Program-made: the position numbers and the translations under genes
The notes under the pieces: model-generated
The model's input: the letters and a program-made list of their open reading frames with translations, nothing else
Told to the model about the DNA's origin: nothing
Databases searched by the model: none
Assembly: GCF_003991155.1 (NCBI RefSeq)
Contig: NZ_CP031293.1
Length of the DNA: 64,000 nt
Strand: one strand, 5' to 3'
DNA from: Escherichia coli
GTDB lineage: Bacteria > Pseudomonadota > Gammaproteobacteria > Enterobacterales > Enterobacteriaceae
Part shown: piece by piece, positions 3,565 to 3,941 of the stretch
How positions within the stretch are numbered: position 1 is the first letter of the stretch
Layout of the letters: each line of letters opens with the position of its first letter

Positions 3565-3941
3565 ATGAATCTTCCTTGAGTAAAGTATAGGAATATGTCA
3601 CATGGGGTGATGAGAAAACAGACAACAGCCGATAATTCAGAATTTATAAAGGGGATGAGCGAAAAAATAATAAACGTAATAAGTATGTTTTCGAACATTC
3701 AATAAGAAAATAGAGATGTGTATCACAAATATAGTGATGAATAATTTGTTGATTTTGTAGTTTACTTAACAGATTTATAATTGACTTTTTAAAAGCTTAT
3801 TTCATGTTGTTGTTATTTAATATTTTGTTATTTTTGCTCGTGGAGTTTCTCCTTTCATGTGTCCAATTGCTTTCGTTAATTTGTACGCGTATTTTATTTT
3901 TACCGCCGGACTGTACCCTAAAAATAAAATAAGGATAATTT

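Follow-up and report, generated by a model that had tools for sequence, protein, structure and literature searches.

An AT-rich spacer upstream of cmtB in B2-type Escherichia coli: probably a divergent allele of a CRP-dependent control region joined to the 5' region of an SPFH gene

Background

In the Escherichia coli DNA analysed here a spacer of very low GC content separates an SPFH gene from cmtB. The two genes are transcribed away from each other and no gene lies between them, the small open reading frames of the spacer having been rejected (see below). The question raised by this locus is whether such a tract is foreign DNA that is kept silent, a pair of divergent promoters, or a control region with a history of its own. 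The whole stretch of DNA examined, 64,000 nucleotides long, is referred to as "the window". A previous interpretation made from its letters (the sequence-only reading) had called the spacer consistent with divergent promoters and, possibly, with silencing of a cryptic cmt operon by nucleoid proteins. Our analysis indicates that most of the spacer is a control region of the cmt sugar-transport operon that is old, rigid in its spacing, dependent on CRP and common to enteric bacteria, a real yet largely ordinary regulatory region, and that the window carries a divergent allele of this known kind of element. The sequence-only reading overlooked that the spacer is composite, that CRP is the regulator for which there is evidence, and that the AT-rich part is ancestral and not foreign.

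Results

Location and composition of the spacer

The window belongs to a B2-type E. coli. Across positions 3400-4100 it matches strains 536, F11 and others with 100% identity, and the RefSeq annotation of the 100%-identical strain 536 has the same two coding sequences with the same 377-bp gap between them. On the 3' side cmtB is followed by cmtA, yggP, a remnant of a class II fructose-bisphosphatase gene, and yggD/fumE. The downstream gene yggF is internally deleted in the window allele. The features of the spacer and the two flanking genes are collected in Table 1.

Table 1. Features in and beside the spacer between the SPFH gene and cmtB, in window coordinates
Feature	Position	Strand	Description and basis
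SPFH/Band_7 ORF	2656-3564	-	302 aa; annotated "prohibitin family protein"; ORF list and Pfam
Spacer, whole	3565..3941		377 bp, from the SPFH start (3564, minus strand) to the cmtB start (3942)
SPFH leader hairpin (predicted)	3562..3604	-	anti-SD UUCC(U) would pair with SD (A)GGAA, and CAUGUGA with UCAUAUG, which includes the start codon
SPFH-specific 5' region	3565..3681	-	about 115 bp; leader and probable core promoter; 37% GC in the SPFH-proximal 100 bp
Candidate SPFH promoter	3660..3702	-	-35 TTCGAA 3695-3690 or TTGAAT 3702-3697; -10 TATTAT 3672-3667; predicted start about 3660-3666
CRP site 1, AGAGATGTGTATCACA	3712..3727		centre 222.5 bp before the cmtB ATG, 155.5 bp away from that of the SPFH gene; matrix match
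CRP site 2 (decayed), TGTAGTTTACTTAACA	3756..3771		centre 178.5 bp upstream of the cmtB ATG
TTGACT block	3781..3786	+	TTGAC/TTGCT in all genera; alignment
Operator-like palindrome position	3803..3815		consensus TAAC-N5-GTTA; CATG-N5-GTTA in the window, left half lost
42-codon ATG ORF, rejected as a gene	3804..3932	+	ends 9 nt before cmtB
Promoter-like element	3867..3895	+	-35 TTGCTT 3867-3872, 17-bp spacer, -10 TATTTT 3890-3895; alignment and hexamer scan
AT-only 13-nt perfect inverted repeat	3890..3931		TATTTTATTTTTA 3890-3902 and TAAAAATAAAATA 3919-3931 around a variable 16-nt centre; repeat finder
cmtB (PTS EIIA) ORF	3942-4385	+	ORF list and Pfam

The strongly AT-rich character that the sequence-only reading gave to this 377-bp spacer is borne out, down to the exact boundaries. 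Its GC content is 28.9%, against 51.5% for the whole window, and it is the lowest 377-bp stretch in the 64 kb; only 0.09% of stretches of that length are equally low, and all of them overlap the spacer. The AT-richness is unevenly distributed. The core (3665-3863) has 24.1% GC, the 100 bp next to the SPFH gene have 37%, and the trough lies on the cmtB side. The A/T tracts that had been remarked on are moderately enriched: runs of four or more number 13, where mononucleotide shuffles give 7.6 ± 2.4 (p about 0.025). The 10-11 bp periodicity of AA/TT dinucleotides is absent from the spacer, and phased A-tract curvature is therefore not indicated. No terminators were found in the spacer.

Promoter prediction in both directions does return hexamer pairs, but their count equals that of composition-matched shuffles. 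Although their density is about 11 times that of ordinary DNA of the window, this equality with the shuffles means that promoter prediction alone proves nothing for the spacer.

A probably composite spacer

The whole spacer, together with the SPFH gene, is present in about 1,825 of 5,426 complete E. coli genomes, or about a third. The remaining genomes, K-12 included, are matched over no more than the final 78 bp, with an identity of about 91%. The SPFH gene is missing from K-12; there tkt and its terminator are followed by a 313-bp spacer before cmtB, which is collinear with window positions from about 3682 to 3941 at a core identity of about 43-50%. A search with CmtB in one genome per species placed the order tkt-(about 316 bp)-cmtB-cmtA-yggP in at least 10 enterobacterial genera, among them Citrobacter, Salmonella (S. 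enterica subspecies arizonae and diarizonae), Raoultella, Lelliottia, Silvania, Superficieibacter, Huaxiibacter and Phytobacter. Outside Escherichia the SPFH gene is always missing from this order. Among the cmtB loci, an SPFH gene between tkt and cmtB is confined to Escherichia, where E. albertii, E. whittamii, one unnamed species and some of the E. coli genomes have it.

In 33 loci the GC content of the 330 bp before cmtB runs from 0.28 to 0.39, and this stretch is AT-rich in every genus. The closest SPFH ortholog outside Escherichia (83% identity, a protein named from Kluyvera intermedia) lies between tkt and epd on contigs that carry no cmt operon, and the 360-bp spacer upstream of it has 42% GC. 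Taken together, these observations assign the AT-richness to the cmt control region. The AT-rich part is syntenic and ancestral in at least 10 genera and does not have the distribution of horizontally acquired DNA. AT-richness and fixed spacing are inherited properties of the cmt module in all genera. We consider it quite probable that the spacer consists of two regulatory units of different age placed end to end: the cmt control region, from about 3682 to 3941, and the 5' region of the SPFH gene, from 3565 to about 3681. The idea that the SPFH gene is a simple recent insertion into Escherichia is weakened by the tkt-SPFH-epd order in Kluyvera, and a presence/absence polymorphism of long standing, with several losses, is just as possible.

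CRP sites upstream of cmtB

Candidate CRP sites were scored with a matrix built from 104 ChIP-seq sites (Haycocks et al. 2015, Table 1, PMC4287617), from which the cmtB site was excluded. Site 1 matches the CRP consensus TGTGA-N6-TCACA, and its score of 12.1 bits ranks third among all positions of the 64 kb; the median of the training set is 13.0. It is homologous in position to the K-12/ETEC site CGTGTTGTAGATCACA (13.9 bits), from which it differs at 5 of 16 positions, and a predicted site occupies this position in about 22 of 24 taxa. Site 2 has decayed in the window allele, scoring 3.7 bits; its counterparts in other Escherichia, Citrobacter, Salmonella and Raoultella reach 8.6-16.2 bits (12.7 bits in K-12). 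Scans of each species that made no use of the alignment found CRP matches centred at -222.5 and -178.5 from the ATG in most taxa, including a perfect site, TGTGATTTTTATCACA, in S. arizonae. The distance between the two sites is 44 bp in all 24 sequences.

Published experiments bear directly on the K-12-type region. Genomic SELEX identified the K-12 site CGTGTTGTAGATCACA for "cmtBA-yggPFDC", and a lacZ fusion to a fragment of about 500 bp from upstream of K-12 cmtB was active, less so in a crp mutant (Shimada et al. 2011, PMC3105977). CRP ChIP-seq in ETEC H10407 gave a peak at the same cmtB site with a fold-above-threshold of 16 (Haycocks et al. 2015, PMC4287617), which in the portion of the ETEC table covered here is topped only by mtlA/yibI, ppiA/tsgA and fdoG. 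These data give experimental support to the K-12-type region as a control region activated by CRP. We infer by homology that the window allele may be controlled likewise, although the core of the CRP-tested K-12 allele is only about 50% identical to that of the window. Of the divergent promoters put forward by the sequence-only reading, the control region in the cmtB direction is upheld by the K-12 lacZ data with their crp dependence and by the ETEC ChIP-seq peak; in the SPFH direction the evidence is sequence prediction, and "divergent" is plausible.

Promoter-like elements and repeats on the cmtB side

An alignment of 24 sequences, covering 260 bp upstream of cmtB, consists of short conserved islands amid substitution-saturated sequence. 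One island is the TTGACT block. In several genera a -10-like TATTTT/TATATT follows it, which would put CRP site 2 at -41.5, in class II geometry; this -10 is degraded in the window allele. In Citrobacter, Raoultella, Silvania and Huaxiibacter a scan with hexamer matrices detected ATCACA-17-TATTTT/TATATT/TATAAT, for which the start is predicted at about 137-141 nt before the ATG. Relative to the predicted distal starts, site 2 would fall at -41.5 or -62.5 in other taxa and in K-12. The operator-like palindrome, centred about 133 bp upstream of the cmtB ATG, is perfect (TAAC-N5-GTTA) in a subset of taxa comprising K-12, E. sp. E1V33, E. albertii, Enterobacter, Lelliottia and Raoultella; its right half, TTGTT, is kept in nearly all of the 24 sequences.

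The proximal element, TTG(C/A)TT-17-TATTTT in the alignment, is the only promoter-like pair whose position is conserved in 24 of 24 sequences, and it ranks top or second in most. Its predicted start in the window is near 3902, with a 40-nt leader. A strict promoter tool rule missed it, only 3 of 6 positions of its -35 matching. After the element come GTACCC and then an A-rich run that extends to the ribosome-binding site. A sigma-54 promoter in this conserved proximal block was rejected by eye, there being no GG-N10-GC spacing, and cmtB is absent from the K-12 start-site compilation in the supplements of Kim 2012. The two CRP sites lie 138 and 182 bp upstream of the predicted proximal start, and so the element is too far away for standard class I or class II activation. 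If it is the real promoter, CRP must act via another promoter or through DNA architecture.

The AT-only inverted repeat overlaps this element and ends at the cmtB ribosome-binding site AAGGA (3931-3935). With the conserved TATTTT as the -10, its 5' arm would not be transcribed. Two roles are conceivable for the repeat: a promoter followed by an A-rich leader for translation, or an operator with two half-sites.

Fixed spacing in a fast-diverging sequence

Successive landmarks lie 44/25/29/57/23/23 bp apart, and these values recur unchanged in 19 of the 24 sequences, drawn from about 11 genera. Superficieibacter departs from them most, through an 11-bp deletion that amounts to one helical turn. 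The neighbouring divergent spacer between loiP and tkt, in the same 14 species, served as a control for indels. Pairs of sequences from the cmt region have a median of 0 gap events at 57% identity, against a median of 5 for loiP-tkt at a mean identity of 77%; when Superficieibacter is left aside, 83% of the cmt pairs are gap-free.

Divergence is also high within the species. Between the window and strain 1162C the SPFH gene is 97.5% identical, cmtB 95.7% and cmtA 99.2%, whereas the spacer core is 72.9% identical, and yet both spacers are 377 bp long with no indel between them. Compared with K-12, cmtB is 98.2% identical and the core only about 43-50%, as different as between genera. The spacer thus behaves as a switched or hypervariable intergenic region does: inside a single species it has diverged much further than the genes on either side of it. 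Import of the K-12 allele from another genus was considered and rejected, no sampled genus being closer than 54%, and no plausible donor lineage for either E. coli allele was found among the sampled genera. From these alignments, the E. coli spacer alleles look like old, collinear, fast-diverging versions of one architecture.

Alternative explanations

Two alternatives would place the cause of the fixed spacing, or of the conservation next to cmtB, in a product of the DNA. A small protein, such as the 42-aa hydrophobic peptide encoded at 3804-3932 or another short open reading frame, would account for a region so strikingly free of indels, and the 42-codon frame is indeed intact in three alleles that have diverged by 20-30%. 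We give this explanation almost no credence. Neither the 42-aa frame on the plus strand nor a 45-aa frame on the minus strand has a ribosome-binding site or is conserved; the former is not found intact in E. albertii, E. whittamii, the L006 allele of E. coli or any other genus. No frame on either strand of the spacer stays open across species (minimum open run 12-23 codons), and a T-rich strand yields Leu/Phe-rich, "hydrophobic" translations by default. A regulatory leader RNA is a somewhat better candidate but still improbable. It supposes that 3864-3941 are not a promoter but part of a long leader transcribed from a distal CRP-dependent promoter, and that a hairpin formed by the 13-nt AU repeat controls translation or mRNA stability. 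Class I or class II geometry from CRP site 2 does predict starts 117-137 nt upstream of the ATG, the arms of the repeat are conserved across genera around a variable centre, and in 32 distinct sequences 93.6% of the cells pair, with 15 one-sided A-to-G changes that keep G-U pairs. This pairing is nevertheless not above that of shuffled controls (63/500) and includes a single double-sided change, the hairpin energy is no better than that of dinucleotide shuffles in most species (z from 0.2 to -0.8), and in some species the 3' arm is shortened without a compensating change in the 5' arm. RNAalifold gave no consensus structure (0 pairs) for -62..+3 or -145..+12 of cmtB, and Rfam gave no match at E<=1 in 3565-3941; a cis-regulatory leader RNA with a known family or with conserved, covarying structure is thus not what the spacer presents. 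Outside the spacer, at 1175-1307, the window has sub-threshold REP-related Rfam matches (ES036 and naRNA4). With neither a coding frame nor a conserved RNA structure, the spacing is best read as a matter of DNA-level architecture, and the most economical reading is that several bound proteins need fixed positions relative to each other.

The remaining alternative, which takes up the nucleoid-protein silencing raised by the sequence-only reading, is that H-NS/StpA filaments nucleate on the AT-rich tract and silence cmtBA, and perhaps the SPFH gene, the CRP sites mattering only once silencing is relieved. It has composition on its side: 24% GC over 200 bp, enriched A/T runs, and the contrast of the whole spacer with the window. 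The only matches to the nucleation motif TCGATAAATT are three 10-mers within 2 mismatches of it. The cmt operon has, moreover, traditionally been called cryptic, which counts in the same direction. H-NS occupancy is inversely related to GC content genome-wide, and H-NS can exclude CRP from its targets (Haycocks et al. 2015, PMC4287617). We nonetheless judge silencing to be an unlikely account of the region, although one to be taken seriously. The AT-rich part is ancestral and syntenic, which weakens the logic of xenogeneic silencing; in the portion of the ETEC table covered here (PMC4287617) the homologous region is among the sites most strongly occupied by CRP in vivo, and so is accessible there; the K-12 fragment has CRP-dependent activity in the wild type; phased A-tracts give no signal; and a composition-driven filament has no need of discrete motifs at strict, indel-free spacing. 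The description of the operon as cryptic is itself doubtful: operon, reading frames and control architecture have all been kept from genus to genus, and the K-12 fragment has measurable activity. The literature searched made no mention of cmtB or cmtA as H-NS targets, an absence that is not evidence against binding. From the AT content H-NS binding is plausible, and it could modulate the region or coexist with the control by CRP that we favour.

The SPFH side

K-12-type E. coli and the other cmt genera lack the 5' region of the SPFH gene, homology to K-12 starting near 3682. This region is 85-86% identical between SPFH-carrying alleles, seven of which share conserved blocks across Escherichia species and partly into Kluyvera. 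The candidate promoter has 17 bp between TTCGAA and TATTAT in the window. A promoter tool and hexamer-matrix scans put the predicted start 96-103 nt upstream of the ATG in 5 of the 7 alleles, with ATTGAA invariant. The predicted leader hairpin has an energy of -11 kcal/mol (z = -3.2), and 2 of 200 shuffles are as stable; in other alleles z ranges from -1.0 to -3.0, and E. albertii folds differently. RNAalifold returned 11 pairs with one-sided G-U/G-C changes only and no compensatory changes. We regard the hairpin as a moderately supported candidate for a translational gate. CRP site 1 lies about 55-60 bp upstream of the predicted SPFH start, and on this spacing one may speculate that it serves both directions.

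Discussion

The observations suggest a working scheme for the locus. Bound at site 1 (3712-3727) and, in most lineages, at a second site 44 bp downstream, cAMP-CRP would activate transcription toward cmtB. The palindrome would be a probable operator for a specific repressor, and we guess that this repressor is YggD/FumE, the MtlR-family protein which the operon itself encodes; YggD matches both the MtlR family of Pfam and the MltR family of NCBIfam. For the core promoter the best candidate is the invariant TTGCTT-17-TATTTT element, some 40 nt before the ATG, from which an A/U-rich leader would feed the cmtB ribosome-binding site. On the other side, a probable promoter would start the SPFH transcript near 3660, with a leader hairpin that may hide the ribosome-binding site and the start codon, and site 1 might be shared by the two genes. 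In the B2-type allele, the decay of CRP site 2, of the class II -10 and of the left half of the palindrome predicts weaker or altered control by CRP and the repressor. Together with the yggF deletion, the loss of site 2 and of half the palindrome may reflect relaxed or changed regulation in B2 strains.

A more specific version of this scheme is that the approximately 220 bp upstream of cmtB form a rigid nucleoprotein scaffold, in which tandem CRP dimers and an uncharacterised repressor, possibly YggD/FumE, on the T-run/A-run inverted repeats keep a helical geometry that has been held across at least 10 genera; the three or more collinear E. coli alleles, 25-50% diverged, would then be natural regulatory variants. 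We put this forward as a tentative and rather doubtful extension.

Comparison with known systems places the spacer among ordinary regulatory DNA. The K-12/ETEC cmtB promoter region is the orthologous locus, with site 1 at -222.5 and identical landmark spacings. It differs from the window in that the tkt terminator lies directly upstream, and in that K-12 retains site 2, the perfect palindrome and a TTGTTA-17-TATATA extended -10 element, all of which are degraded in the window allele. The mtlADR operon of E. coli encodes the mannitol PTS and has multiple CRP sites and the MtlR repressor, and its analogy to cmt is a lead. On general knowledge the two are operons of a paralogous type, with a PTS permease, a polyol-phosphate dehydrogenase and a distal gene of the MtlR family. 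In the part of the ETEC data covered here mtlADR has the strongest CRP ChIP peaks, with a fold-above-threshold of 27-45 versus 16 for cmtB (PMC4287617). The bgl operon, treated by Sankar et al. 2009 (PMC2646131), likewise combines an AT-rich upstream region, a CRP site and a sugar PTS operon described as "cryptic", and both loci differ in presence or state between E. coli phylogroups. Repression by H-NS has been demonstrated for bgl, whereas cmt is an operon conserved across genera whose K-12 fragment is CRP-dependent.

Some intergenic regions of E. coli are reportedly "switched", that is, subject to horizontal regulatory switching (Oren et al. 2014, PNAS). The cmt alleles resemble them in that the flanking genes are 96-100% identical while the core is 70-75% identical (B2 versus the 1162C type) or about 50% identical (versus the K-12 type). 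They differ in being collinear, with identical spacing of motifs, and not unrelated sequence that has replaced another.

Much of what emerges is housekeeping knowledge: the spacer combines ancestral control DNA of cmt with the 5' region that belongs to an accessory gene, and is probably not foreign DNA kept silent, and an anonymous AT-rich tract is now tied to published CRP data. That many genera combine saturated substitutions with near-absent indels, along some 180 bp, implies a regulatory complex dependent on geometry, of a kind undescribed for cmt. The map also supplies concrete targets in the search for what induces and what represses the operon. Very divergent collinear alleles within E. 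coli, among them a uropathogenic B2 allele without the second CRP site, amount to a natural experiment on the evolution of promoter architecture. The scheme predicts that the B2 allele has a lower dependence on CRP, and that restoring site 2, from TGTAGTTTACTTAACA to TGTGATATGCATCACA, should raise it.

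Gene order around the SPFH gene

On metagenome and sequencing-run contigs (L037-L039) that lack the entire cmtBA-ygg block, tkt and epd-pgk-fbaA flank an SPFH ortholog with 83% identity, a protein that takes its name from Kluyvera intermedia. The tkt-SPFH adjacency thus predates Escherichia. Upstream of the SPFH gene on these contigs, at a distance of 160 bp, there is a predicted CRP-like site (10.1 bits) similar to the one at epd in K-12. A Klebsiella oxytoca chromosome carries a more divergent homolog of the SPFH protein (71% identity), whose neighbours are TraF-like, HNH, Rrf2 and DUF2913 genes. 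Its setting looks like a mobile island, which points to an SPFH family that is also carried by mobile DNA.

Divergence within the cmt operon

CmtB has diverged much faster than its neighbours. Protein identity to other Escherichia lineages (L006, L007 and L016) is 85-90% for CmtB, 97-99% for CmtA and 99-100% for the tkt C-terminus. When the window is compared with E. coli strain 1162C, DNA identity falls to 91% at 4000-4100, and this dip suggests a recombination mosaic around the cmtB start.

Between yggP and yggD/fumE, only a remnant of yggF, the gene for a class II fructose-bisphosphatase, is left; it has an internal deletion and is frame-shifted, and the same region in strain 536 is annotated as fragments by RefSeq. 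The K-12 operon is given as cmtBA-yggPFDC, yggF included (Shimada et al., PMC3105977). Enterobacterial tkt-cmtBA-yggP sequence was also found on contigs labelled Chryseobacterium sp. (L028) and Alkalicoccobacillus porphyridii (L034), the latter 297 bp long and 96% identical to E. coli CmtB; both are probably contamination or mislabelled assemblies.

REP units and IS621 downstream of tkt

The REP-type units downstream of tkt gave two sub-threshold matches to Rfam, ES036/CssrF at 35.5 bits (threshold 37.6) and naRNA4 at 32.2 bits (threshold 59.5), which are probably just REP sequence. The interval from tkt to the SPFH gene contains a complete IS621, a member of the IS110 family whose transposase bears the NCBIfam name "RNA-guided". 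It interrupts a REP element, with the junction (slash) reading gtatgtag/gcctgataagcg and, on the opposite strand, ATCAGGC/CTAC. The site is empty in strain 536, and the same insertion is present in a few other E. coli genomes.

Other CRP-matrix matches

The two top matches to the CRP matrix in the window are predicted sites that both fall outside the cmtB spacer. The higher-scoring one adjoins the window's only other AT-rich trough, where GC is 0.31 near 29989.

Positions of features in the window
Feature	Position	Strand	Details
REP-type palindromic units	1175-1307		downstream of tkt
IS621, complete	1303-2581		1,279 bp
IS621 transposase	1407-2387	minus	326 aa
cmtB	3942-4385	plus	
yggF remnant	7090-7426		
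Predicted CRP site	9279-9294		TGTGATGACGTTCAAA; 13.3 bits, CRP matrix
AT-rich trough	29963-30042		
Predicted CRP site	30065-30080		TTTGATACCCATCACA; 15.4 bits, CRP matrix
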